A stretch of DNA of 64,000 nucleotides from an uncultured Poribacteria bacterium (GTDB lineage Bacteria; Poribacteria; WGA-4E; WGA-3G). Under the pieces are notes generated by a model, which was not told the DNA's origin, ran no database searches, and was given only the letters and a program-made list of their open reading frames with translations. The position numbers and the translations under genes were made by a program. Numbering within the stretch: position 1 is the stretch's first letter; the number at the start of each line of letters is the position of its first letter. The DNA lies in NCBI GenBank assembly GCA_951813565.1, contig OX638351.1, positions 739,716-803,715 of the forward strand, in the 5' to 3' direction. Positions 1 through 60,357 of this stretch are shown here, piece after piece.

Positions 1-1257
1 CATCTGCATTAAGCCGCCTGCCCCAGTTTTTGACACAGCCACAGGATTAAATTTTGATTCTACATAAATAATGGCTAACATCAGTTCAATAGAGATGTTG
101 TGTTTTTTTGCAATTTGAATGCTCTTTTTTAGTGAAGAATTAGGTGTAGGTTTAACTTTTTCGGGGTAAGGCTTATCAGGTGTTTGCGGTGTTACGTGGG
201 GTGTTGTACTGCTAAGGTCTGATTCAGCACCTTTTAGGTTATCAGGTGTTTGCGGTGTCTCAATGGGAGTTGTGTTGCTGGATATAGGTTTGACTTTTTC
301 GTTTCTAAGCCTATCAGATGTTTGTTGTGGTTCACCAAAAGTGAGACCAATTGAAAGTAGATGTTTATACTCAAGATTGTTTTCATTCAAAAAAGTATAA
401 TAGGTTTGCTTCCCCCACTGTTTGAATGCGAGTCCTAAACTCCATGAGTGAGTAGGTGTTCCAGTGTCAAAGGAGAAATGCGATCCGACATTAGCAGAAA
501 GAGGTCCTGTCACGATTTCCACACTTGTACCCAAACTCGGAGGTACAGTATTAAAACTGGCATGCCATCTAACAAATTGATGGGGTATTAGGGTAGTTCC
601 TACAGCAAATTGCGGGTCAAAGGTTTTTAAAACTATACCATTTTTATCTTGAATGGATACACCGCTAATATCGCGAATCTGCATGCCTACGATAGCATGA
701 GGGGAAAGAGTCATCAATGCTCCGATATCATAATTTGGAGCCCAGAGGCTGTTCTGATAAGGGGCACGACTATATCCAGTGCTTGCTCCAAGCTGCACCG
801 GTCCGAATTTCCTTGCATAGGAGAGTAGAGCTTGATTGTAACCGTACTCAAATGTGCCAATAGGGTTGGAATCGTGATTTACCAAGAAACGATCAGAAAG
901 GTTGAGATCAAGGAGGTTTATACCGAAAGTTCCAATTGGGTTAATAGGATATGCAAGGGAAAACGCACCTTGTGAGAAATCATAAATCAGATTTCCACGG
1001 TCAAGGGATGCGAGTCCTGCGGGATTCCAAAGCGGACTTGTTGCATCATCAGCACCACTAATAAAAGCACGACTCAATCCGAGTCCGCGCGTTCCAATTG
1101 CAGGTCTCGGTTGATGTGTTTCAATTTCGTGCTGACTGTTGACCGAATCTGAAAAGATGTGATTTCCACTGGGAAAACACATGAATAGGAGGAGTAAGAT
1201 GACTGTGAAAAACCATCTTGGTTCACGGGAGATCAAGGTGGCGAGCTGGATTTTCAC
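1..1257 (-). CDS. PorV/FadL-like outer-membrane beta-barrel fused to a lytic transglycosylase (SLT) domain; 3' end runs off the window
   Basis: Not in the ORF track. Read by hand: stop-free frame from GTG 1257 (start uncertain) to base 1. Signal-like RWFFTVILLLLFMC; PorV/FadL N-motif GTRGLGLSRAFISGADDATSPLWNPAGLA; last strand LLSIGLTF; Pro/Thr linker with PQTPD twice; SLT motif AIIYVESKFNPVAVSKTGAGGLMQM. Confidence 0.85.
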   Translation of the reverse strand, partial: MKIQLATLISREPRWFFTVILLLLFMCFPSGNHIFSDSVNSQHEIETHQPRPAIGTRGLGLSRAFISGADDATSPLWNPAGLASLDRGNLIYDFSQGAFSLAYPINPIGTFGINLLDLNLSDRFLVNHDSNPIGTFEYGYNQALLSYARKFGPVQLGASTGYSRAPYQNSLWAPNYDIGALMTLSPHAIVGMQIRDISGVSIQDKNGIVLKTFDPQFAVGTTLIPHQFVRWHASFNTVPPSLGTSVEIVTGPLSANVGSHFSFDTGTPTHSWSLGLAFKQWGKQTYYTFLNENNLEYKHLLSIGLTFGEPQQTSDRLRNEKVKPISSNTTPIETPQTPDNLKGAESDLSSTTPHVTPQTPDKPYPEKVKPTPNSSLKKSIQIAKKHNISIELMLAIIYVESKFNPVAVSKTGAGGLMQM

Positions 1258-2038
1258 TTTTCCCTTTGTATCTAATTTCAAAATGCAGATGAGGACCTGT
1301 TGAAATTCCGGTGTTTCCGGTCAAACCGATAACTTGTCCTTGTCGGACGAAATCACCGACGGATACATAAATCCTTGACAAGTGTCCATAAGATGTGCTG
1401 AAATCGTCTTCGTGTTGTATGGAGACTGTTTTGCCATAGCCGCCTTTTCTTGCTGCATAGGTAACTGTCCCTGTCTTTGAAGCATAAACTCGTGTACCAG
1501 TTCTTGCACGGAAATCTATGCCTTCGTGCAGACGGTAATGGCGCGTTACAGGATGGTTGCGATAACCGTAATGTGATGTTACAACTAAAGGAATTTGTAA
1601 CGGAATTTCGAAACCGACACTTTCATGAACCGGGATAAAAATTTCCTGACCTATTTGGAGTTGTTTCGGATTGGAAATGTTATTTATTTTTTGAAGTTCT
1701 TTCCAATCCTTAATATTGTGCTTTCGTGCGATATTATATAATGTATCCCCGTCTTTAATAACATGCCAAGTCCCATCCGCACTTCCACCGGCATTTGGGG
1801 TTTTTGCGTCGATTGGGATTATTAACTTTTTTCCAATTTGCAAGTGATCTATAGACTTCAAATTGTTGGTTTTGGCAATAGATTTTACGGACACATCATA
1901 TTTTCTGGCAATCCCTGACAATGTTTCTCCTGCCTTGACCTTATGTACTAGTCCTGCAATACACGAAGATGTCCACGATACTGAAATAAAAACAATGGAT
2001 AAAACGGTTATAACTACTTTAAAATTTTTTCTCTTCAT
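1223..2038 (-). CDS. LysM (x2) + M23 peptidoglycan endopeptidase
   Basis: Two LysM motifs (HKVKAGETLSGIARKY, HVIKDGDTLYNIARKH); M23 motifs HEGID and STGPHLHFEIR; signal peptide. Confidence 0.93.
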   Translation of the reverse strand: MKRKNFKVVITVLSIVFISVSWTSSCIAGLVHKVKAGETLSGIARKYDVSVKSIAKTNNLKSIDHLQIGKKLIIPIDAKTPNAGGSADGTWHVIKDGDTLYNIARKHNIKDWKELQKINNISNPKQLQIGQEIFIPVHESVGFEIPLQIPLVVTSHYGYRNHPVTRHYRLHEGIDFRARTGTRVYASKTGTVTYAARKGGYGKTVSIQHEDDFSTSYGHLSRIYVSVGDFVRQGQVIGLTGNTGISTGPHLHFEIRYKGKSENPARHLDLP

Positions 2039-2329: not shown

Positions 2330-2875
2330 CTATTCACGGGCTACCTTTAGCAATATCTCTGTCGTATCTGAAAAAATTTGCGTGTCGGTTTGAATTCCTG
2401 TGGATTCAACAGAAACGACTTCGCTGATCACAGTCACAACGAGTTGTAGAACCTCAACCCGCGTATTTACTTCACCTAACGTATCGGGGGCTGTCCATGT
2501 TACTGGATTGTCGTTGGTGGAGGAAAGCGTTCCATAATCGGTAATGTTTAGCCAATGTAAGACGACACTTGTTCCTCTAACCCCCTTAACTGCAGCAGTC
2601 AGTTCTACTTGTTCTCCCGGCTTGACCACTTTTTTTGTAACCGTCACTGTTACATCAAGATCACCCGCTTCCTCTACGTTTCCTACCTCTTCGGTGGTTT
2701 CTAATGCAACGATAGCATCACCAGAATCCGCTATATCCTCTTCCACCAAATCAGCGTCAGTTACGGGGTTATTCAAGTTACTACCACCGCATCCTGAGAT
2801 ATTTAAAACTAACCCAACAAAAAAAATGCTAAAAAATAATACAAGAAATTGAAATGTTCTCATGACTCCACCCAT
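2330..2875 (-). CDS. hypothetical lipoprotein with Ig-like domain
   Basis: Hydrophobic signal with ISGC lipobox, acidic linker, beta-rich C-terminus. Confidence 0.65.
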   Translation of the reverse strand: MGGVMRTFQFLVLFFSIFFVGLVLNISGCGGSNLNNPVTDADLVEEDIADSGDAIVALETTEEVGNVEEAGDLDVTVTVTKKVVKPGEQVELTAAVKGVRGTSVVLHWLNITDYGTLSSTNDNPVTWTAPDTLGEVNTRVEVLQLVVTVISEVVSVESTGIQTDTQIFSDTTEILLKVARE

Positions 2876-17180: not shown

Positions 17181-19658
17181 CTACTTGAGGATTAGCATTT
17201 TGCGCGTGGCAGTAAAGTCACCGGCGGTGAGGGTGTAAAAATACACACCGCTCGCAGCAGGTTCACCGAGTGCGTTTCTGCCATCCCAATGCGCAGCACG
17301 GCTGCGAGTTTGATACAGGCCTGCACGCTGATGTCCTAAATCTAAGGAACGTACAACATGTCCCTTGATGTCGTATATCGTCAGTGTGACATCGGCAGGT
17401 TTGGACAGCTGATACGGAATCCACGTCTCTGGGTTGAACGGGTTCGGGTAGTTCGCAAGCAGTGCGGTTTCTTCTGGTGTGAACAGTGCCAAGAGTCGCT
17501 CTACAACAGCAATACCCCGCTGGTAAGTGCGGGAGGTGTTTCCCGATGCGCGCGCCTCAGTGAGATATCTTTGGAGTTGTGCTTTCGTGAAATGTGATTG
17601 CACCTGCGCGCGGGCAGCGGGTGCAGCTGCCGCACTGTCCACCGCGGCAGCAACCAAGATGAAATCGTCCACGTTGACAATTTCATCTCCGTTGACATCC
17701 GCAGCATTGCTCCCGGTACGTCCATACCGCTGTGCGACTACAATCAGATCATTAACATCCACAATCCCATCACGGTTCACGTCCTCCTTGACGATTGTGG
17801 GATTAACTGGAGAAAAAATGCCGATGGCTATACCTAATGGAATTTCCAATCCTTGTGTGACGAGGTCTTCGACGTTTGAACCATCAAGGTTTGCGCGCTG
17901 GATTTTATCCGTGCCAGTATCTGTCCAATACATCTTGCCACCCGCCACATCTAACGCTATGCCCCTTGGACTGCGTAATCCCTGTGTAACGAGGTCTTGA
18001 ATGTCTGATCCATCCAGGTTTGCCCGTTGGATTTTATCCGTGCCATAGTCTGTCCAATACATCTTGCCACCTTCCACGTTTAACGCTATTCCGCTTGGAA
18101 ACTCTAATCCTTGTGTGACGAGGTCTTGAACGTCTGATCCATCCAGGTTTGCCCGTTGGATTTTATCCGTGTCAGCATCTGTCCAATACATCTTGCCACC
18201 CGCCACATCTAACGCTATTCCGCTTGGACTGCGTAATCCCTGTGTAACGAGGTCTTGAACGTCTGATCCATCCAGGTTTGCCCGTTGGATTTTATCCGTG
18301 TCAGCATCTGTCCAATACATCTTGCCACCCGCTACATCTAACGCTATGCCCCTTGGAAACTCTAATCCTTGTGTGACGAGGTCTTGAACGTCTGATCCAT
18401 CCAGGTTTGCCCGTTGGATTTTATTCGTGTCAGTATCTGTCCAATACATCTTACCATCTTCTACATCTAACGCTATGCCCCTTGGAAACTCTAATCCTTG
18501 TGTGACGAGGTCTTCGATGTTTGAGCCGTCCAAGTTCGCCCGTTGGATTTTATCCGTGCCAGTATCTATCCAGAAAATCGTCAACAGAGCTTCTCCCCTG
18601 TTTGCAGTGACGTGTATTTCTGTAGTTAGCGCGGTGCCTTTATAGTTTGTGATCGCGCCAGATGCCACACTGAAGGTCAATGCACTATCCCTGACAAAGT
18701 CGGTGCCATCAAAATCAAGTTCAACCGTTATTTCAGTATCGCTGAGGCGTTGCACGGAAGCGGTGTCTACTGCTACGCCATTGATACCGGATACCATCAC
18801 GGCATTTCTGATCGTGGAGATGTCCTGCTCAAAAGCTGCACCAGTAAGGACCAGTGAGACAATGCTCTCATCCAGCGTCGCTTCTGTCAAGGGAGAAACC
18901 ACTGAAGCAGAAACAACTTCTTTAATAGCGGTGACAGTTATTTCTGCAATGAGTTCTTCTCCTATGTAGTTTGCTATTGCCTCTGCTGCCACGTTGAAAC
19001 TGAGTGCAGTATCAGTGTCAAAGTCGGTCCTATCAAAATCAAGATCAATTGTTATTTCAGTATCGCTGAGGCGTTGCACTTTTGCGGTGTCTATCGTTAC
19101 ACCATTGATACCGGAGACCATCACAGCATCTCTAATCGTGGCAACGTCCGCCTCGTAAGTATCATAACTGAGTGTCAATGTGACCACACCTTCATCCAAA
19201 GTCGCCTCTGTTAATGGAGACACAGCTGAGGCTGAAAGCCTTGTGTAACTTGTCGTTCCTTCGTGAATAGCGCCTGAATCTATGCGCACCTCGTACGTAG
19301 TCCCGGGAACAAGACTTTCAATTGTATAACTTCTTGTAGCAGTCTCAACTTCGTTGGGTATCCGATAAAATCTCCAAATCACTGTATAACTCTTATTGGC
19401 TGATTTCCACTCCCCTGGGGATGTTTTTTGCCTCCATTCAAAGAGAAATGTTTTAGTCTCAATACCCGAATGATTCTCCAAATAACTGAAATTAAATGTT
19501 ACTTTTAGCGAAGTGTCGTTATCACCAGGCTCAACTGAGACGATATCAGCGTAACTTGCAGTTTGTGCATTACATATCAATACTATCACCATGAGAACTA
19601 ACAAAGTAATTTTTCGATTCATAACTAACATTTTCATCATAAACTCCTTTGTAAACAT
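17181..19658 (-). CDS. secreted protein: FN3-like, two Ig-like repeats, six YWTD (LDL-receptor class B) repeats, dockerin-like domain, FlgD-Ig/T9SS-type C-terminal domain
   Basis: GKMYWTD repeats; EDVNRDGIVDVNDL and DVNGDEIVNVDDF; LANYPNPFNPETW..SGVYFYTL..TRKMLILK. Confidence 0.9.
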   Translation of the reverse strand: MFTKEFMMKMLVMNRKITLLVLMVIVLICNAQTASYADIVSVEPGDNDTSLKVTFNFSYLENHSGIETKTFLFEWRQKTSPGEWKSANKSYTVIWRFYRIPNEVETATRSYTIESLVPGTTYEVRIDSGAIHEGTTSYTRLSASAVSPLTEATLDEGVVTLTLSYDTYEADVATIRDAVMVSGINGVTIDTAKVQRLSDTEITIDLDFDRTDFDTDTALSFNVAAEAIANYIGEELIAEITVTAIKEVVSASVVSPLTEATLDESIVSLVLTGAAFEQDISTIRNAVMVSGINGVAVDTASVQRLSDTEITVELDFDGTDFVRDSALTFSVASGAITNYKGTALTTEIHVTANRGEALLTIFWIDTGTDKIQRANLDGSNIEDLVTQGLEFPRGIALDVEDGKMYWTDTDTNKIQRANLDGSDVQDLVTQGLEFPRGIALDVAGGKMYWTDADTDKIQRANLDGSDVQDLVTQGLRSPSGIALDVAGGKMYWTDADTDKIQRANLDGSDVQDLVTQGLEFPSGIALNVEGGKMYWTDYGTDKIQRANLDGSDIQDLVTQGLRSPRGIALDVAGGKMYWTDTGTDKIQRANLDGSNVEDLVTQGLEIPLGIAIGIFSPVNPTIVKEDVNRDGIVDVNDLIVVAQRYGRTGSNAADVNGDEIVNVDDFILVAAAVDSAAAAPAARAQVQSHFTKAQLQRYLTEARASGNTSRTYQRGIAVVERLLALFTPEETALLANYPNPFNPETWIPYQLSKPADVTLTIYDIKGHVVRSLDLGHQRAGLYQTRSRAAHWDGRNALGEPAASGVYFYTLTAGDFTATRKMLILK
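17820..18580 (-). repeat. six ~129 bp coding tandem repeats (43 aa YWTD units)
   Basis: TGTCCAATACATCTT recurs every 129 bp; the units are nearly identical. Confidence 0.92.
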
Positions 19659-39735: not shown

Positions 39736-42700
39736 ATGGTAGATGACGATGTTCTACTCATACGCAAAATATTATTAGGGGACGATACTGCATTCAGCAC
39801 CTTAGTTGAAAAGTATCGAAAAGGTGTTCATGCTTTCGCGTGGCGAAAAATAGGAGATTTCCACCATGCTGAAGAGATTACGCAGGATGCTTTCATCCAA
39901 GTCTATAAAAATCTTTCCACACTCAGGAATCCAAACCAATTTGCTGGATGGTTATACGTAATTGCCAACCGTCTGTGTATCAAATGGAAGGAAAAAAGAA
40001 AAATAACGACTCAATCATTAGAAGGCACATCAATGTCAGAGATTAACGCATCTTCATACACCAAGTATATATCCGAACAGAGGGATAGAGAAGCAACCGA
40101 GAAACGACTTGAAATTGTAAACAAACTCCTGAAAAAACTGCCTGAAAGTGAACGGACTGTCATCACACTCTATTATTTAGGCGAAATGACTGCCAAAGAG
40201 ATTGGCAAGTTTTTAGGTGTATCTATTAACACGATTAAGAGCCGACTTCGCCGTGCGCGAGAGCGGTTAAAAGAGGAAGAAGCAATGATACGAGAAAACA
40301 TCAATTGTGTCCAATTTCCGACACAGACAACAGCAAACATTATGAAGGAAATATCGCAACTAAAACCTACCGCACCGTCTGGTAACAACCCTTTAGTGCC
40401 GATAGGTATATCCGCTGCGTCAGCGTTGATTGTCTTATTGTTGATGGGCGTTGGAATGCAATATCTTGTTCATTTTCAGAAGCCGTATACTTTAGAAGCA
40501 ACATCAGAACCAACGATTAAAATTGTTGATGCACAACTTGTCCTTGAGTCTCCCGTAGAAACAGCAGTGCGAAATCAGGTTGGACGGTCAGATGCTATCG
40601 GTAGAAACAGTGGGAAAGGACAACAACCAGATACTCCCCTATTCGCTGCAGCACAAGCAGATGATAGAGTGAAATCAGATGCGAAATCAGAATGGACTCA
40701 AACGAAAGGTCCAGAAGGCGGTGCAATCGGGACTTTATTCACAACCACAAGAGGTGACGTGTATGCCGGCACACTAAACGGACTCTACAGATTTTCTGAT
40801 GATGAACAAGCGTGGACACTCATAAACACAATCAAAGGTCCGCCATTGCCACTATATGATGGCGGATGGTGGTGGCCCGTTGCAGAGAGTCAGAGTGCCG
40901 ATATACTCTACCTTGCCACCGATATAGCGATATTAGAATCATTTGATAGGGGTGAAACATGGGAGACACTTTGTAAAGGTACAAATATAAATAGAGATAC
41001 GGACGTGTATGCAGTGCATCCTGTTGGCTTAGTCATAGCAGACAATGCTGTAGATATAACAATCTATCTCGCTTATAGAAATGGTGTTTTCCGAACAGAC
41101 GATGTTGGTAAAACATGGACACCTTTGCTCGCAGGTTTGGAAAACACGAAAATCCGAACAATTGCTGCTATTCAAGACACAGTTTTCGCTGGCACTTACA
41201 AAGGGTTATACCGCCTCAATAACAATGTATGGGAACAAGTGTTGATTGATCCGGAGAATGTGCAAAACAAAACACTTTACATCGCAGCGTTAGTAGTCTC
41301 AGAAAACAATCTGTATGTAGCGGCAAAGCAGGTTGAAAAAAGTCGCTCTACTGGGATTGGGATAGATATAGCATTAGATACGTTGGATATAAATTTAGAA
41401 TTAGCCCCGTTCAAACAAAAACAGACCACATGGTCCCTTTATCACACAAACGACATGGGGGATTCATGGCATGTTATAACGCCGAAACTGGATACCGCAG
41501 ACAATAAAGACAACTATATACGTGATCATTTGTCGGCATTATATAGGACAGTCGTCATTGAGAGTCCATCTATCCACTTAGCAGCATCTGGAGAAAAGAT
41601 CATGGTGGTTGTTGGGAAGTATCATTTCTACTCAATTAATGGCGGTAAGACATGGACACATTTAGATGATATAAGCAATGCGGATCATGTGTCAGGGGTC
41701 GTCCTATTGAATGACAACACCGTCTATAGAAGCGGATTATCCGGGATTCATCGCACAACTGATTGCGGTGCATCGTGGCATAAATCGGATACAGGGATCA
41801 TCAATACATTTATCCACCAGCTGATTTACATGAACAACACACTCTACGCGAACATAGGTCCACTCAGGGTATTAAGTTCCACTGACAGTGGAGATTCGTG
41901 GACACCGGTTGCTGGAGACACACATAAATACGCATCTTTAGTCGAATATGATGGCGCGCTATATGCCACAAACGAATCATATTCCGCTCTTAGAGTTTTC
42001 AGATTTTCACACGATGAGAATAGGTTCATTGAAATCCCTGACGTGCCAGTAATTGGAGAAAAGAAGCCACCGAACCCCAATAAAGTTGTGGTGGAAACAG
42101 TTACATTTGGTGAAGAAGAAAAACGCCCCATTGACAGACCTTTAAATCCAGATGATTTAGCTGACATTAACCCCAGAAACAAAGGTCTGACTTCAACGGA
42201 TCACAACATTGATATTAATGTTTTCCATGTATTACCTTTCGGAAGTTTTGCGGCGAGTCGGACAGCCTACTATGTGGAATACGAACACAAACTCTTCAGA
42301 TGGAAACCCGATACCACAGAATGGTATGACACCGGACTGGTAGATACAGGCCAAATTGATACTAATTTTGAAAACCCAGGAAACAATGGTTTTGTTAATA
42401 ATTTCAAACTTGCAGTTTCAAAAAACACCGTTTACGTAGGAATGCGAGACGGGCGGCTCATGCGATCCTTTGATGAAGGGGACACTTGGAAACATGCAGC
42501 CGCAGATCTTCCATTTCATGTTGAAAATTACAAGCAAATCATTTTTGTAGGACAAACCGTCTATGTCGCGACCGATAGGGGTGTTGCGCTATCCATCAAT
42601 GGCACTGATTGGCAAGCCATCATGGACACGCAAGGTGAAATTCTTGTCGTGGATATGTTTGCGGTTGATAGATCGAAGGTTTACGGTCTGTCCGGACAAA

Positions 42701-42864
42701 AGGTGTATTTATTATCCGAGCATTCTGGGACATGGCAGCAGGTTACACCTGAAATTACACATTCTATTTCCACTTTTGAGGTGGATGGGGATACGGTATA
42801 CGTTGGGACACAAGGGAAGGGCGTGTTCCGATTTACACTTGATGATTCGGGGAACGGTAAGTAG
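39736..42864 (+). CDS. ECF sigma-70 factor fused to a TM helix and a BNR/Asp-box beta-propeller
   Basis: Sigma region 2 (AEEITQDAF) and region 4 (TIKSRLRRAR); TM near aa 222-245; SFDRGETW, SINGGKTW, STDSGDSW, SFDEGDTW. Confidence 0.9.
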   Translation: MVDDDVLLIRKILLGDDTAFSTLVEKYRKGVHAFAWRKIGDFHHAEEITQDAFIQVYKNLSTLRNPNQFAGWLYVIANRLCIKWKEKRKITTQSLEGTSMSEINASSYTKYISEQRDREATEKRLEIVNKLLKKLPESERTVITLYYLGEMTAKEIGKFLGVSINTIKSRLRRARERLKEEEAMIRENINCVQFPTQTTANIMKEISQLKPTAPSGNNPLVPIGISAASALIVLLLMGVGMQYLVHFQKPYTLEATSEPTIKIVDAQLVLESPVETAVRNQVGRSDAIGRNSGKGQQPDTPLFAAAQADDRVKSDAKSEWTQTKGPEGGAIGTLFTTTRGDVYAGTLNGLYRFSDDEQAWTLINTIKGPPLPLYDGGWWWPVAESQSADILYLATDIAILESFDRGETWETLCKGTNINRDTDVYAVHPVGLVIADNAVDITIYLAYRNGVFRTDDVGKTWTPLLAGLENTKIRTIAAIQDTVFAGTYKGLYRLNNNVWEQVLIDPENVQNKTLYIAALVVSENNLYVAAKQVEKSRSTGIGIDIALDTLDINLELAPFKQKQTTWSLYHTNDMGDSWHVITPKLDTADNKDNYIRDHLSALYRTVVIESPSIHLAASGEKIMVVVGKYHFYSINGGKTWTHLDDISNADHVSGVVLLNDNTVYRSGLSGIHRTTDCGASWHKSDTGIINTFIHQLIYMNNTLYANIGPLRVLSSTDSGDSWTPVAGDTHKYASLVEYDGALYATNESYSALRVFRFSHDENRFIEIPDVPVIGEKKPPNPNKVVVETVTFGEEEKRPIDRPLNPDDLADINPRNKGLTSTDHNIDINVFHVLPFGSFAASRTAYYVEYEHKLFRWKPDTTEWYDTGLVDTGQIDTNFENPGNNGFVNNFKLAVSKNTVYVGMRDGRLMRSFDEGDTWKHAAADLPFHVENYKQIIFVGQTVYVATDRGVALSINGTDWQAIMDTQGEILVVDMFAVDRSKVYGLSGQKVYLLSEHSGTWQQVTPEITHSISTFEVDGDTVYVGTQGKGVFRFTLDDSGNGK

Positions 42865-55104: not shown

Positions 55105-58100
55105 TTGATGTTTAATATTATGATTTCAATGATGAAACACATTACATTATTAACAGTCATTTTACTCCTTATAAATATAGTGTCTTTTTTTGCTGTTATC
55201 TCTGTGGAAGCTTCCCCAGTTACCCCTAATAACCGATCACATATTAGGGGAATATCACACAGTAGCGGAAAGATTGAATTGGTAAGTGCTACATCCCAAG
55301 GGGTAACGATTCAACTTGCTATCGCTGAATCAGATTTCGAAATAGAAACACAGGAACGTAGTGGCAAACATTTTCAGACGCTCTCATTCCCAGAATGCCG
55401 TTTCACAACAGAACATGGAACCCACCGTCTACCTATGCAGACTGCCCTGATTGGGGTTCCAGCAGATGCAAGTTTTACGTTACGTGTTGTTGAAAGTAGT
55501 GACTTTAGCATATATAAACTTCAACACACGCTCGCGGATCGTAGTGTTTATTTCGGGCAACACAATTTTAATGCAGCGGCGCCAACATCAGAGAAGGTTT
55601 ATACAACCGATCGTTTTTTTCCACACAACCTTGCTGAAATTAGAACGGCAGGATGGATTCGGGAAAACCGCGTTCTTCCTATCCAACTAAATCCGGTTCA
55701 ATATAACCCTGTCAGTGGCGAGGTTCGGCTTTACCACCGCCTTGTAGTCGAGGTGCAATTCAACGGGTTAGGTAAAGCACCGTCAGCGTTTCAAGGATTC
55801 CCTCGTCCAGAATCTTCTATTTATGAGGAAATGTTCGGGAATCTACTGATTAATCCACAAACTGCTAAGCAGTGGCGTTCTCCAGTTATGGGTGAAATTC
55901 AAGGGAACAATGTTTCCACAGTTGGGACACTTACTGAGCGCAGTCCTGCCTTTTCTCTACCCAGTGCCCCCCCAATTACCTCGCCTCGCTATAAGATCAC
56001 TATTACTGAGTCAGGCATGTACCGCATTGCGGCAAGCGACTTAGCAGCAGCTGGAGTTGATATAACTACTATCAGACCTTCCTCATTGACAATGTCAAAC
56101 AAAGGAAAACAAATCCCGCTTCTTGTGCGGAGAACAAGCAGTGGACAATCAGCAACAGAGGATGGGATTAATTCCACTGGGTTTGATAGCAACAGTGAAA
56201 TCATTTTTTTCGGTCAACGCCACGGTGGTGAAAAAACTTATATTGATCCATATTCAGATGAGAATGTCTATTGGCTTTCGTGGAATTCAGGACCGGGACT
56301 GCGGATGGAAACAAAAGTGGTTTCAACAGATACATTCGGAAGATATGAACCTAAGAACTTCCTCACACGTGTCCATTTTGAAAAAGATAATCAGTTTAGA
56401 CGTTTTAAAAATTTTGGTCTTGCAGCAGGAAGTGAATATCAACAAATTAGTGACGGTCTCCAAGAACGGCGATTCACACTAACAGCCTTACCTGAGTTGC
56501 CAGACGATAGTTGGTTTTGGGCACAACTCAGTGCACCACAAGTAAGAGGCTTTCCTTTTACGATAACCGGTGTTGCGGGAACAGCTGAAAAAGCTACCGT
56601 ACGGATTGCGCTCCACGGCAGATCAGAAGATGTGCACTTTACTGAACTGTGGCTGAATGAGGATATTGTCCTTGGAGGACCGCGATGGGAAGGAGAAACA
56701 GAATTCCAATTTGAGAATCAACAGATTTCCCAATCCGTTCTCAAAGATGGTAGAAATACAATTAGCGCGGTTAATCCTGGGGGGAGTGGTCTGGATCTCA
56801 TCATGCTGAACTGGTTTGAAATTGACTATTGGCGAACTTTTGAAGCAAATGCGGATGTTCTGCCTTTTTCAATTACATTACTCCCAGACGATGAAACCGG
56901 CAACGTTAATCCTAATTTTAAAGTTGAGTTAAAGAACTTTTCCAATCCTAACATTGAGATTTATGGTATTGATGGCACGCGGTATGTTGGTTTATCACCG
57001 ATAGAAGATGAAGATCGTCCAGGCATCTACAATGTCGTTTTTCAATCTTCACGGATAGGCGGCGTGTCGCAAAACCGATCTGCTGTACCACTTGATACAG
57101 ATATCCAATATATCGCGCTAACAAGCGACAAATACCTAAAACCTAACAAAATCATCAAGGACACATCATCGGATTTAAGCGGTCTACACAACGGTGCAGA
57201 TTACATTATCATTACGGATACAGAATTTATGCGAGATGTGCAACCGCTTGTCGACTTTCGAATCCAGCAAGGAATGCGGGCTAAAGTGGTGGATGTCCAA
57301 AATATCTATGATGAGTTTAATCATGGAATTTCCAATCCTTATGCGCTCCGCGATTTCCTTAAGTATGCTTATGAAAACTGGCAACCGCCAGCACCAACCT
57401 ATGTTTTGTTAGTTGGGGACACAAGCCCAAAAGACAAGGTAAGTTTTGTTCCTACAATTCAGGTGCAAATCCCGGGTTACGGTTCATCTGCGAGCGATCA
57501 CCAATTCGTCACATTTCGCGGCGATGACAGTTTCCCGGATATGCTTATCGGAAGAGTGCCAGCAGCAAATAGTGTAGATGCGCGGATATTCGTTGAACGT
57601 ACCATCAACTATGAAAATACTGCCGAAGTAGGTCCTTGGCACAAACGTATACTTATGCTCGCGGGCTCAGATAAAAGATTTCACGCCCAAACCGATGAAC
57701 TGATTGAAGTGAGAAGGCTCCCTGAAAAATATGAAACTAAACTAATCTATGCGCCTCCTACTGCAGAAGATGAACTGACCTTAGGTGAAGGCAGCACTCC
57801 TGTTGGACGACAGGTTATTGATGGTTTCAACGATGGAGCGACTCTTGTTAATTATATCGGTCACGGTGGTGGAGGCGTTTGGTCATCCAGTCGTATGATG
57901 GATTTAGAGGATCCAGAAAAAAACCTAACAAATATATCGCGGCTTCCCTTTGTTATCAGTATGACGTGTTTCACGGGTGAATTCGACAGTCCATCAGGCT
58001 GTCTCGCGGAAGCGTTGCTTCGTTCGGAAAGTGGTGGTGCCATCGCGGTCATCGGCGGAACGAGCATCGGACTATTAGATGGGGACCATCTTCTCAATAA

Positions 58101-60357
58101 AGAGATTTTTGAGGTTATTTTTAATGACAACACACAACATATCGGTGGCATTCTCGCCGAAGCGAAGACACAATTTCTGATTAACTTCCCGGGATTCCTT
58201 GATCTTACGGAAGTTTTTACCCTTTTCGGTGATCCAGCGACTCGGTTGAGATTGCCGCACACGCAGATGCAAGTCACAGTTGATTTAGATGAGACATCTG
58301 ATCCGGAAAATTTCAAAACAGAAACATTACTATCTATTTCTGGAACGCTACCTAACCCCGATTTTAGTGGAGATGCCGAGATTACTGTGCTTCCGAATCC
58401 GCCAGACAGAAGCATAAAAAAGAAACGTTCAAGTCGTAATCCTCCGGATATGGTTGTTCGTCGTTCTATAGACGACGAACCTCGTATGGAAACTGTGTCG
58501 GTGATTGATGGAAAGTTCGAAACACAAATACGGATTCCTTACAATAGCGCATTTGATGCGCTGAAGTTGAGAGTTTACGCGTGGAATGCTGAAGAAGACG
58601 CAATTGGATATATGGATTATACCCCTCTTGATCGATACATCAAAAACGTCCGTCTTGAACCTTATCCTGTTGCCCCCGCCCAACCTGTCCATATTTATGC
58701 TGAGGCAGTTAATCCAAGTGTAATTGACGAAATAACCCTCTATTGGAGTTTTTTTGTCATAGAAGATCGTCGTACAGAGGCAGATGCAATCCCGATGGTT
58801 TTACACGAAGGAAGTACCTACAGAACTGAACAACCTATCCCCGCGCATCTATCAGGTGACCTAATTGATTACTATCTACTTGTCAAACCGAAGGATGGGC
58901 GTATTCTTCACACAAAGGTTGTTACCTATGAAGTTGGTGAAGCGGATCTCACCGTTTTAGAACATACTATCAACTGGAATTCCGCTGCACCTTTCTTGCT
59001 TTCCGCGCAAATTAGAAACCGCGGTTCTCTTCATGCCAAAAACGTGCCTGTCCGCTTTTTTCAGATGCGCGTGACTGATGGTTCAGAAACGCAAGAAGTA
59101 ACACTTGAGGCACTCCAGAACGCGACACCTATTGGAGAGGAACAGATTATCTCTGAAGTTCCTCCCGACGGTTCTGTTGTAGCGAGTGTCCCTTGGCAAC
59201 CTGCCCTGGGTACATACCTTGTAACAGTATTTGTAGACATGCCGTCGGAAGAACAACCGAATGGTATTCTTGCTGAATTTAGGGAACACAATAACAGCGC
59301 ATCACGGCAATTTATTAATAACCAACTCTTCCTTACTCCCGATAGTCTTAATACGCCGATTCAGAGCGCAGATGGCGTTTTTCGTATAACTCTACCGCCA
59401 GAGAGCCTGCAAACACATCCAATGATGACGTTTGAAACGGAAGAATTGACTATTACGAACCAACCAGATATAACACCTATTCCCACAACAATTGAACAAG
59501 CTGTGCCTCTTGCCTATCGCCTTAACTTCAGTCAACAAACTGAATTGACAGGGACAGCAACGTTCATGAACACAACGGGTGCGGACTCGCATATCTATAT
59601 GCGTGACGATGAAACAGGGAATTGGATTCGGGTTGGAAAGCAGAAAGATAACGGTGAAATAATTTCCGCGGAAGTTAAACTACCGGGGACGTTCGCACTG
59701 CTCTCCTACACAGATTCTCACCCACCAACATTGGAATTAACCGTTGAAAATCAGGGATTCATTGATGGTGATTACATCTCCGATATGCCCACTATTTCTG
59801 CGAGAATAGAAGACGCAAATGGTATTGATCCTCGGCCCGAGAATATCATTCTCACCAAAAATGGTAACCGCGTCCCACAAGACGAGTACATAGTATCCGC
59901 TTCTCCTACAAGTAGCAACGTCCTCCTGATAACCTATTCCCCGGTTGATACGCTGCAAGCAGGTGAGTACCGAATTCGGTTACAGGCTCAGGATGCAAAT
60001 GGTAATGTCGCAGACACCGATCGGACAGCAAGGGTCGCAGGTGGATTTGAAATAAAAAACATCGCTAATTTTCCAAACCCGTTCCGTTCTGGACAAGGCA
60101 CTGGAAAAGGGACAGACTTCGCCTATTATCTAACAGAAAGTGCGGATAAAGTTACCCTCAAGATTTACACACTTACCGGCAAACTTATCACTACTATTGA
60201 TACACTTGACGCGTCTACTTCTTACAACGAATACCATTTCAATGGCTTGGATGCCGATGGTGAACCGCTTGCGAACGGCGTCTATATTTACAAATTTACC
60301 GCTACCAAAGGTGATGATCGCGCTCAAAAGGTTGGTAAGATAGTGGTTCTCAAGTAG
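55105..60357 (+). CDS. C25 (gingipain/PorU-like) cysteine peptidase with propeptide, CARDB-like and C-terminal FlgD-Ig domain
   Basis: YKITITESGMYRI, ADYIII, IYDEF, YVLLVGD, catalytic NYIGHG and SMTC, LFGDPA, NFPNPF..LANGVYIYK. Confidence 0.9.
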   Translation: MMFNIMISMMKHITLLTVILLLINIVSFFAVISVEASPVTPNNRSHIRGISHSSGKIELVSATSQGVTIQLAIAESDFEIETQERSGKHFQTLSFPECRFTTEHGTHRLPMQTALIGVPADASFTLRVVESSDFSIYKLQHTLADRSVYFGQHNFNAAAPTSEKVYTTDRFFPHNLAEIRTAGWIRENRVLPIQLNPVQYNPVSGEVRLYHRLVVEVQFNGLGKAPSAFQGFPRPESSIYEEMFGNLLINPQTAKQWRSPVMGEIQGNNVSTVGTLTERSPAFSLPSAPPITSPRYKITITESGMYRIAASDLAAAGVDITTIRPSSLTMSNKGKQIPLLVRRTSSGQSATEDGINSTGFDSNSEIIFFGQRHGGEKTYIDPYSDENVYWLSWNSGPGLRMETKVVSTDTFGRYEPKNFLTRVHFEKDNQFRRFKNFGLAAGSEYQQISDGLQERRFTLTALPELPDDSWFWAQLSAPQVRGFPFTITGVAGTAEKATVRIALHGRSEDVHFTELWLNEDIVLGGPRWEGETEFQFENQQISQSVLKDGRNTISAVNPGGSGLDLIMLNWFEIDYWRTFEANADVLPFSITLLPDDETGNVNPNFKVELKNFSNPNIEIYGIDGTRYVGLSPIEDEDRPGIYNVVFQSSRIGGVSQNRSAVPLDTDIQYIALTSDKYLKPNKIIKDTSSDLSGLHNGADYIIITDTEFMRDVQPLVDFRIQQGMRAKVVDVQNIYDEFNHGISNPYALRDFLKYAYENWQPPAPTYVLLVGDTSPKDKVSFVPTIQVQIPGYGSSASDHQFVTFRGDDSFPDMLIGRVPAANSVDARIFVERTINYENTAEVGPWHKRILMLAGSDKRFHAQTDELIEVRRLPEKYETKLIYAPPTAEDELTLGEGSTPVGRQVIDGFNDGATLVNYIGHGGGGVWSSSRMMDLEDPEKNLTNISRLPFVISMTCFTGEFDSPSGCLAEALLRSESGGAIAVIGGTSIGLLDGDHLLNKEIFEVIFNDNTQHIGGILAEAKTQFLINFPGFLDLTEVFTLFGDPATRLRLPHTQMQVTVDLDETSDPENFKTETLLSISGTLPNPDFSGDAEITVLPNPPDRSIKKKRSSRNPPDMVVRRSIDDEPRMETVSVIDGKFETQIRIPYNSAFDALKLRVYAWNAEEDAIGYMDYTPLDRYIKNVRLEPYPVAPAQPVHIYAEAVNPSVIDEITLYWSFFVIEDRRTEADAIPMVLHEGSTYRTEQPIPAHLSGDLIDYYLLVKPKDGRILHTKVVTYEVGEADLTVLEHTINWNSAAPFLLSAQIRNRGSLHAKNVPVRFFQMRVTDGSETQEVTLEALQNATPIGEEQIISEVPPDGSVVASVPWQPALGTYLVTVFVDMPSEEQPNGILAEFREHNNSASRQFINNQLFLTPDSLNTPIQSADGVFRITLPPESLQTHPMMTFETEELTITNQPDITPIPTTIEQAVPLAYRLNFSQQTELTGTATFMNTTGADSHIYMRDDETGNWIRVGKQKDNGEIISAEVKLPGTFALLSYTDSHPPTLELTVENQGFIDGDYISDMPTISARIEDANGIDPRPENIILTKNGNRVPQDEYIVSASPTSSNVLLITYSPVDTLQAGEYRIRLQAQDANGNVADTDRTARVAGGFEIKNIANFPNPFRSGQGTGKGTDFAYYLTESADKVTLKIYTLTGKLITTIDTLDASTSYNEYHFNGLDADGEPLANGVYIYKFTATKGDDRAQKVGKIVVLK

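Follow-up and report, generated by a model that had tools for sequence, protein, structure and literature searches.

A gene joining a predicted FadL-superfamily beta-barrel to a putative lytic transglycosylase is conserved across most of the phylum Poribacteria

Can an outer-membrane beta-barrel and a peptidoglycan-cutting enzyme be one protein and, if so, what would such a protein be for? The question is raised by a 64,000-nucleotide stretch of DNA from an uncultured Poribacteria bacterium (GenBank assembly GCA_951813565.1, contig OX638351.1, positions 739,716 to 803,715; the whole stretch is called the window below), at whose left edge a minus-strand frame without a stop runs from position 1257 to position 1 and leaves the window. 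An earlier note, made from the window sequence alone, had read this frame as a PorV/FadL-like barrel fused to a lytic transglycosylase of the SLT type, and had placed it, with a neighboring endopeptidase, perhaps in the service of a machine resembling the type IX secretion system (T9SS). Our analysis confirmed that the gene joins a barrel of the FadL/PorV type, a flexible tether and an SLT enzyme in one frame. The fusion is a genuine single gene, conserved across most of the phylum, and probably acts as an outer-membrane-integral lytic transglycosylase within a housekeeping module of peptidoglycan remodeling.

The frame is missing from the ordinary list of open reading frames (ORFs), an absence already noticed, because the window edge truncates it. 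The window is part of a single 5.43-Mb contig (G000:C1:739716-803715), and extension to the left, as the earlier note had advised, carried the frame 113 codons further to complete a gene of 532 amino acids, counted from a GTG at 1257. The full ORF (L001 1159-2757) comprises 540 amino acids when counted from a TTG at 1281, and the residue numbers used here (protein P0002) follow this 540-residue form. GTG 1257 was taken as the start because, in an alignment of 31 sequences, 30 homologues begin with MK(T/I)QL at the equivalent position; TTG 1281 and TTG 1236 were considered as alternatives and are less favored, homologue N-termini matching GTG 1257. The start overlaps the end of a gene encoding two LysM domains and a Peptidase_M23 domain, as had been noted: the TGA of the latter, at 1223-1225, lies 35 nucleotides inside the barrel-SLT frame. 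Matches to the two genes overlap or abut in related genomes too.

An AlphaFold2 model of the protein, built on 31 aligned homologues (mean predicted local distance difference test (pLDDT) score 78.5), and the alignment itself contain every element that had been listed for the frame, from signal peptide to SLT motif. The earlier reading had been staked on the N-half modeling as a transmembrane barrel, and it did so: residues 55-321 have pLDDT values mostly of 86-96, with two short helices preceding 14 long strands. The N-terminal motif GTRGLGLSRAF..DDATSPLWNPAGLA is present, N86 being invariant and P87 found in at least 90% of the 31 aligned sequences, and the barrel-like region ends in LLSIGLTF. 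Polar barrel residues Q104, D125, N149, E255 and H307 are likewise invariant among the 31. The tether of about 61 residues (11 Pro, 9 Thr and 8 Ser in 62 residues) varies widely among these homologues in both length and sequence.

The C-terminal helical domain, residues 383-540, was modeled with confidence and has the SLT fold. Pfam SLT (PF01464) matches residues 388-497 (E 2e-26, 92.3 bits against a cut-off of 21.3) and all 31 relatives. E408 and S409 are invariant in 31/31 aligned sequences, the codon of the catalytic Glu lying at window positions 58-60; Q426, Y489 and G492 are also invariant, and N490 and L424 occur in at least 90%. We take these residues to belong to the E-S motif with its Glu, the GLMQ motif and the AYNxGxG motif of such enzymes. 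By VIA-align, residues 384-529 match Slt, MltF, MltC and Slt70 (Z 13.9-15.4, 124-131 residues aligned, root-mean-square deviation (rmsd) 2.0-3.4), and the sequence profile matches MltC (9vi7) at E 1.3e-22. Sequence and model therefore support assignment of the C-half as a predicted family-1 lytic transglycosylase with a goose-lysozyme-like fold and an intact catalytic motif.

The fusion is widespread within the phylum. Matches at E<=1e-20 were found in 117 of 121 sampled genomes, lying in single open frames of about 500-600 amino acids; where a match fell into two pieces, both shared one frame. The weakest of the 117, in family f5 (E 1e-26 to 1e-32), may reflect the SLT domain without the barrel, and one listed match has an in-frame TAA (G108:C1:1236847-1238334). 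A word-indexed search with the fusion protein returned 318 matches, of which the best 120 have lengths of 461-558 amino acids and identities of 53-99%, with 89-100% of the query covered; the named ones among these 120 are from Candidatus Poribacteria and annotated 'hypothetical' or 'SLT domain-containing'. When the N-half alone was searched against 1.84 billion representatives, 415 matches were obtained at E<=0.001; of 64 longer ones that were scanned, 16 end in an SLT domain, the most distant of them being 25% identical to the query. Four of ten fused clusters in a first look-up carry names, all of Poribacteria; a second look-up of ten, half of them further fused clusters and half barrels with a different C-terminal domain, gave no names. 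An atlas search gave two Poribacteria clusters and otherwise weak leads only. Five of at least 80 loci in a pattern scan of contigs are full-length and the others ordinary SLT genes, a result of little use for judging how widely the fusion is distributed, as the patterns were those of the SLT domain only.

Contigs from sequencing runs of three studies, one of which may be the source of this very DNA, span the gene and its junction with the M23 gene with 0 gaps. In one strain, 15 base differences were seen, 11 of them in the barrel-SLT gene (5 silent, 6 missense and 0 stops). The earlier note had asked whether relatives keep the two halves as separate genes, and the survey answers in favor of the fusion. 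Two genes joined by an error of assembly or annotation is a reading that is already refuted by the single frame in 117/121 genomes, the gapless spanning contigs and the persistence of fused forms to 25% identity; we give it practically no weight.

Which barrel does the N-half represent? By VIA-align, with which Foldseek agrees, residues 57-318 align to residues 2-424 of FadL (3pgr; Z 28.4, 245 aligned, rmsd 2.5), and the barrel scores Z 28.4 against CymD and Z 27-28 against TodX/TbuX. PorV scores similarly (8gl6_F: Z 28.1, 252 aligned, rmsd 2.5, 18% identity; 6h3i_F: Z 27.3), FadL-like subunits of Bacteroidota BAM complexes reach Z 22.6-24.1, and OmpG, a 14-stranded barrel with no hatch, only Z 16-17 in an alignment that starts at residue 94. 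This pattern, high for FadL, CymD and PorV and low for OmpG, therefore identifies the N-half as a FadL-superfamily barrel with a hatch. The more specific name PorV did not survive at the level of curated families. Profile PorV_fam (NF033709), the sole addition from NCBIfam, reaches 33.7 bits against a cut-off of 90 (E 2.9e-8) over residues 62-203 and profile positions 11-178 of 326; Pfam PorV (PF19572) matches 0/31 family members at E<=0.1; and the profile match to solved PorV, only E 0.022, is confined to the N-terminal motif. WNPAGL is a hatch motif common to the whole superfamily, and the PorV fold match is tied with those of FadL, CymD and TodX and is not specific to PorV. Toluene_X (PF03349) gives no match to the query at E<=10; four of 31 relatives match it at E<=0.1 (best 0.0091), and two match TraF_2. 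Because the barrel falls below the curated cut-offs of both PorV and FadL and matches their folds equally well, it is assigned to the FadL superfamily and not to PorV. The same genome holds 17 PorV_fam matches, six of them above the cut-off, and better PorV candidates thus lie elsewhere in it.

Barrels with C-terminal periplasmic domains appear to form a wider class. Among the 64 long distant relatives of the barrel, most of those without SLT end in TPR repeats, and further tails comprise OmpA (2), LysM with TPR (1), a penicillin-binding protein (PBP) transpeptidase (1), a CsgG/TolB_N/LpoB-like region (1) and SLH (1). Proteins P0144, P0150, P0158, P0187, P0201, P0242 and about 35 others carry such non-SLT tails. 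These distant barrels weakly match UPF0164 (a Treponema family), PorV, Toluene_X and TraF_2. Within the present genome but outside the window, a 668-residue paralogue (L092 841-2847, minus strand; G000:C1:2471140-2473146) consists of a barrel, a Pro/Thr/Lys linker, a FlgD_ig-like region and SPOR (E 5.9e-10), the barrel scoring 59 bits on PorV_fam, below its cut-off; judged by its sequence, this paralogue gives the genome a second fusion of a barrel with a predicted peptidoglycan-directed domain. Three of five FadL-like proteins of Treponema pallidum are reported to have a novel periplasmic C-terminal extension, alpha-helical and with a TPR motif, of a kind that the authors did not encounter in any further FadL member in Pfam (PMC8407342). 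Our matches suggest that a C-terminal periplasmic extension may be common among divergent barrels that Pfam does not recognize; what was reported as a peculiarity of the T. pallidum proteins (PMC8407342) would then recur among FadL/PorV-like barrels.

Table 1. Positions of the barrel-SLT gene, its predicted parts and its neighbors (window numbering unless a contig position is given).
Feature	Position	Strand	Remarks
Barrel-SLT gene	1..1257	-	Codons 1-419 of 532; open frame
Last 113 codons and stop of barrel-SLT gene	G000:C1:739374-739715		Left of window
Signal-peptide-like N-terminus	1150..1257	-	About 36 amino acids; hydrophobic helix, residues 21-34, in model; judged by eye
FadL/PorV-fold barrel, residues 55-321	319..1119	-	N-terminal hatch with WNPAGL, then 14 long strands
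Disordered Pro/Thr/Ser-rich tether, residues 322-382	136..318	-	pLDDT <50
N-terminal part of SLT domain, residues 383-427	1..135	-	Remainder outside window
Overlap of M23 gene end with barrel-SLT gene start	1223..1257	-	35 nucleotides
Gene with two LysM domains and Peptidase_M23	1223..2038	-	Pfam
Small lipoprotein gene	2330..2875	-	Invariant GCGGS lipobox, acidic disordered stretch, Ig-like beta-sandwich; from alignment and model

Upstream of the fusion lie the genes for a LysM-M23 protein and a small lipoprotein (Table 1). The former scores 122.1 bits on Peptidase_M23 (cut-off 28.7) and 100.4 on LysM in two stretches (cut-off 20.9) in Pfam. Residues H171, D175, H219, H250 and H252, which we take from LytM to be the metal-binding and catalytic positions of M23, are invariant in 6/6 sequences, so the protein looks catalytically competent; its N-terminus presumably fits a lipobox by the PROSITE pattern. 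A degenerate LytM regulator such as DipM, NlpD, EnvC or ActS was considered and rejected for this protein, its active site being intact and its NCBIfam scores lying below the cut-offs (ActS 127.4 against 375, DipM 122.4 against 900, NlpD 96.5 against 311). Five related loci, with identities as low as 30%, show the succession small protein, LysM-M23 and barrel-SLT, with the M23 gene adjoining the fusion in all five, and an M23 match abuts or overlaps the fusion in each of 23 genomes compared by eye (genera g1, g2, g6, g7, g11 and g14). The M23 gene of genome G038 has one TAG (G038:C1:4391218-4391997). A poly-A 'transcriptomic' metagenome library contributed two short contigs, which fall at about 1782-1956 and 2007-2169 of the window, on the 5' part of the M23 gene and immediately before it; they are no proof of transcription or of an operon.

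The small lipoprotein adjoins the fusion in 11/11 loci, namely these five and six of genera g8 and g9. It has no family in Pfam or NCBIfam, and a fold search returned only generic Ig-like matches (best Z 9.6). Complex prediction for residues 55-540 of the barrel-SLT protein with residues 30-181 of the lipoprotein scored 0.00, which weighs neither way on binding. On the other side of the fusion, left of the window, a minus-strand Gfo/Idh/MocA oxidoreductase gene (L001 1-1149) begins 9 nucleotides past the fusion stop. It stands next to the fusion in three of five close loci, where its product is 84-93% identical, and is far more conserved than the adjoining envelope genes. Elsewhere in the window, a 1042-residue ORF at 39736-42864 (plus strand) combines an extracytoplasmic function (ECF) sigma-70 region (residues 4-183) with an F510_1955-family glycosylhydrolase-like region (residues 867-1027), an unusually long sigma-factor fusion.

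What might the fusion do? Three SLT genes were found in the genome, which is 95% complete, and no match to the MltA or SLT_2 families was found in it. The other two SLT proteins are a 751-residue TPR-SLT protein resembling Slt70 and a 238-residue protein whose N-terminus, judged by eye, is a single hydrophobic helix; neither has an outer-membrane anchor, and the fusion is thus the only outer-membrane-anchored lytic transglycosylase found here. The genome also has three Amidase_3 genes, four OmpA-domain genes and one Peptidase_M23 (PF01551) match, the LysM-M23 gene itself. As the only M23/LytM protein of the genome sits in a conserved envelope cluster, we read that cluster as a housekeeping module, and we think it probable that the fusion is its outer-membrane-integral lytic transglycosylase. 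FadL-family barrels have both termini facing the periplasm. If both ends of the present barrel do likewise, the tether would leave the enzyme suspended beneath the outer membrane, on its inner side, and by a rough estimate the 61 disordered residues of the tether could span the gap and bring the SLT domain within reach of peptidoglycan. There, as judged from sequence and model, the domain would cut bonds between N-acetylmuramic acid (MurNAc) and N-acetylglucosamine (GlcNAc), leaving 1,6-anhydroMurNAc ends. In this context, the enzyme may take the functional place of the lipid-anchored Mlt enzymes of Proteobacteria and may act in concert with the M23 protein, perhaps also with the Ig-like lipoprotein. 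The module would probably act in growth or septum splitting, where the cutting of glycan strands would be coordinated, at the outer membrane, with the cutting of peptides or with control of amidases. The septal role is a guess, encouraged only by the single-copy M23 gene and the SPOR-bearing paralogue. We infer the enzyme activity, membrane location, partner binding and division role of the module.

Several observations weigh against this reading. Four of the 121 genomes (G002, G004, G006 and G100) gave no fusion match at E<=1e-20. No M23 gene occurs in the 9-kb loci of the six genomes examined from genera g8 and g9; their only M23-domain matches, among those listed, lie elsewhere in the genome, and M23 pairing is therefore not obligatory. 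The small protein stands directly upstream of the fusion in these loci, and since it is kept where M23 is missing, it is the constant partner. Of the muramidase and endopeptidase pair proposed in the earlier note, what stands is that the two genes are usually adjacent and both catalytic motifs intact; a fixed pairing fails in 6/6 of these loci. Because the M23 active site is intact, unlike those of degenerate LytM regulators, the analogy to DipM and NlpD may not hold. Nothing places proteins of the cluster at the septum, and the hatch, the NPA-like motif and the invariant polar residues seem to represent more constraint than a passive anchor needs. Finally, the support is computational and the organism uncultured.

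One alternative, which we judge unlikely, is that a PorV-like shuttle barrel brings along a lytic transglycosylase that opens the peptidoglycan so that a T9SS-like machine can be assembled there or pass through. Other secretion systems have dedicated lytic transglycosylases, the barrel matches the PorV fold (Z 28.1) and part of the PorV_fam profile (E 2.9e-8), and components reminiscent of a T9SS do occur in the genome. A PorU-like ORF at 55105-60357 (plus strand, 1750 amino acids) scores 370.6 bits on NF033707 against a cut-off of 420 and also matches the PorU2 N-terminal model; an 825-residue protein at 17181-19658 (minus strand) ends in a C-terminal domain (CTD) of the T9SS type A sorting family (TIGR04183, 36 bits against 23); and outside the window a 2168-residue open frame (G000:C1:2024103-2028074, minus strand) has five weak co-linear SprA matches, the best at 61.5 bits against a cut-off of 200 (TIGR04189). 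The CTD protein (Por_Secre_tail) also has an NHL-like region, and PorU-like frames of about 2100 amino acids occur several per genome across the phylum. The fold match is, however, the tie with FadL, CymD and TodX described above, the curated PorV cut-offs are not reached and six other barrels of the genome exceed that of PorV_fam. Moreover, the CTD protein lies 16 kb and the PorU-like gene 54 kb from the fusion, beyond genes for argininosuccinate synthase, a sulfatase, an oxidoreductase, cytochrome c maturation, enolase, riboflavin and other functions. PorU-like genes, none above the cut-off, are present in 121/121 genomes, including the four without a fusion match. The conserved neighbors are the lipoprotein and the M23 gene, and no T9SS neighbor was seen among the genes compared in 11 related loci. 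The T9SS link drawn in the earlier note is thereby left without support, and we do not read the cluster as equipment dedicated to one secretion machine.

The conserved features of the barrel could instead mean that it works as a FadL-type channel and is coupled to the enzyme, letting peptidoglycan fragments or hydrophobic molecules cross the outer membrane, or gating the enzyme by that membrane's state. The hatches of FadL and PorV align with that of the fusion, whose NPA-like motif is conserved (N86 and P87), and the barrel contains invariant polar residues. We nevertheless hold such a channel to be unlikely. FadL channels carry hydrophobic substrates whereas muropeptides are hydrophilic, no transport-related neighbor is conserved, and the many unrelated periplasmic domains borne by related barrels fit an anchor better. 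The fullest form of the idea, also unlikely, would have hatch and channel mechanically coupled to the transglycosylase, so that anhydro-muropeptides exit through the outer membrane or its state gates wall cutting, and would make barrels with SLT, SPOR, OmpA, LysM, PBP-transpeptidase or TPR domains an unrecognized outer-membrane class that positions wall functions. If true, a coupled channel would give sponge symbionts a built-in route for shedding peptidoglycan fragments toward the host. Very unlikely, in our view, is that the protein is mainly an OmpA-like structural tie between outer membrane and peptidoglycan, whose SLT domain chiefly binds glycan strands. OmpA has a long flexible hinge resembling the tether, distant barrel relatives end in OmpA or LysM and the paralogue ends in SPOR; but the catalytic Glu-Ser pair is invariant in 31/31 sequences over wide divergence, and the genome already has its four OmpA-domain genes.

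An outer-membrane-integral lytic transglycosylase in a remodeling module, the reading we favor, concerns a fusion that is conserved across most of a phylum yet annotated only as 'SLT domain protein' or 'hypothetical'. The lineage has a minimal autolysin set (3 SLT, 1 M23 and 3 amidase genes found), and the three-protein cluster offers a concrete system in which to study how glycan cutting and peptide cutting may be coordinated at its outer membrane. The significance would be greater with a functional barrel, or with confirmation of the broader class of wall domains tethered to barrels.

Like the T. pallidum FadL-like proteins, the fusion has a FadL-type barrel followed by a periplasmic C-terminal domain, the appended domain being TPR in the former and a putative peptidoglycan-cutting enzyme here (PMC8407342). 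For the module there is a precedent in Caulobacter, where the LysM-LytM protein DipM reportedly acts with the SLT enzymes SdpA and SdpB (PMC10336132). DipM and NlpD/ActS combine LysM with LytM/M23 as the neighbor does, and ActS and DipM are its best NCBIfam matches; these regulators have degenerate active sites, whereas the M23 neighbor keeps all five residues. With FadL, TodX and CymD the fusion shares a 14-strand barrel, an N-terminal hatch and an NPA-like motif (Z 27-28.4), a motif probed in FadL to judge by Protein Data Bank entry titles, which name N33A, P34A and delta-NPA mutants. It differs from them by much shorter extracellular loops (about 265 against about 420 amino acids) and by its C-terminal enzyme. 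PorV has the fold and N-terminal motif in common with it and is without the C-terminal tether and enzyme.

No description of a fusion between a FadL/PorV barrel and a lytic transglycosylase was found in the literature searched (titles and starts of abstracts, with subscription journals mostly outside), nor any paper there pairing 'PorV' with 'lytic transglycosylase'; the earlier note likewise knew of no described fusion of this kind. OmpA combines a barrel with a hinge and a domain that binds peptidoglycan in the periplasm, RlpA is a lytic transglycosylase with SPOR that is anchored to the outer membrane, and the outer-membrane barrel MipA binds MltA; to our knowledge, none of these joins a barrel covalently to a lytic transglycosylase. 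The closest functional counterparts may be the Mlt enzymes of Proteobacteria, which are outer-membrane lipoproteins. MltC, MltD, MltE and MltF have the same SLT fold and motifs and act at the inner face of the outer membrane, as the fusion would, but carry an N-terminal lipid anchor in place of a 14-strand barrel and a tether of about 61 residues. Outer-membrane-anchored lytic transglycosylases are thus known, and what is new is the kind of anchor, hitherto undescribed. The lytic transglycosylases of diderms are, as far as we know, soluble, lipid-anchored or anchored in the inner membrane, and an integral beta-barrel with a long tether would be a fourth way to position such an enzyme.

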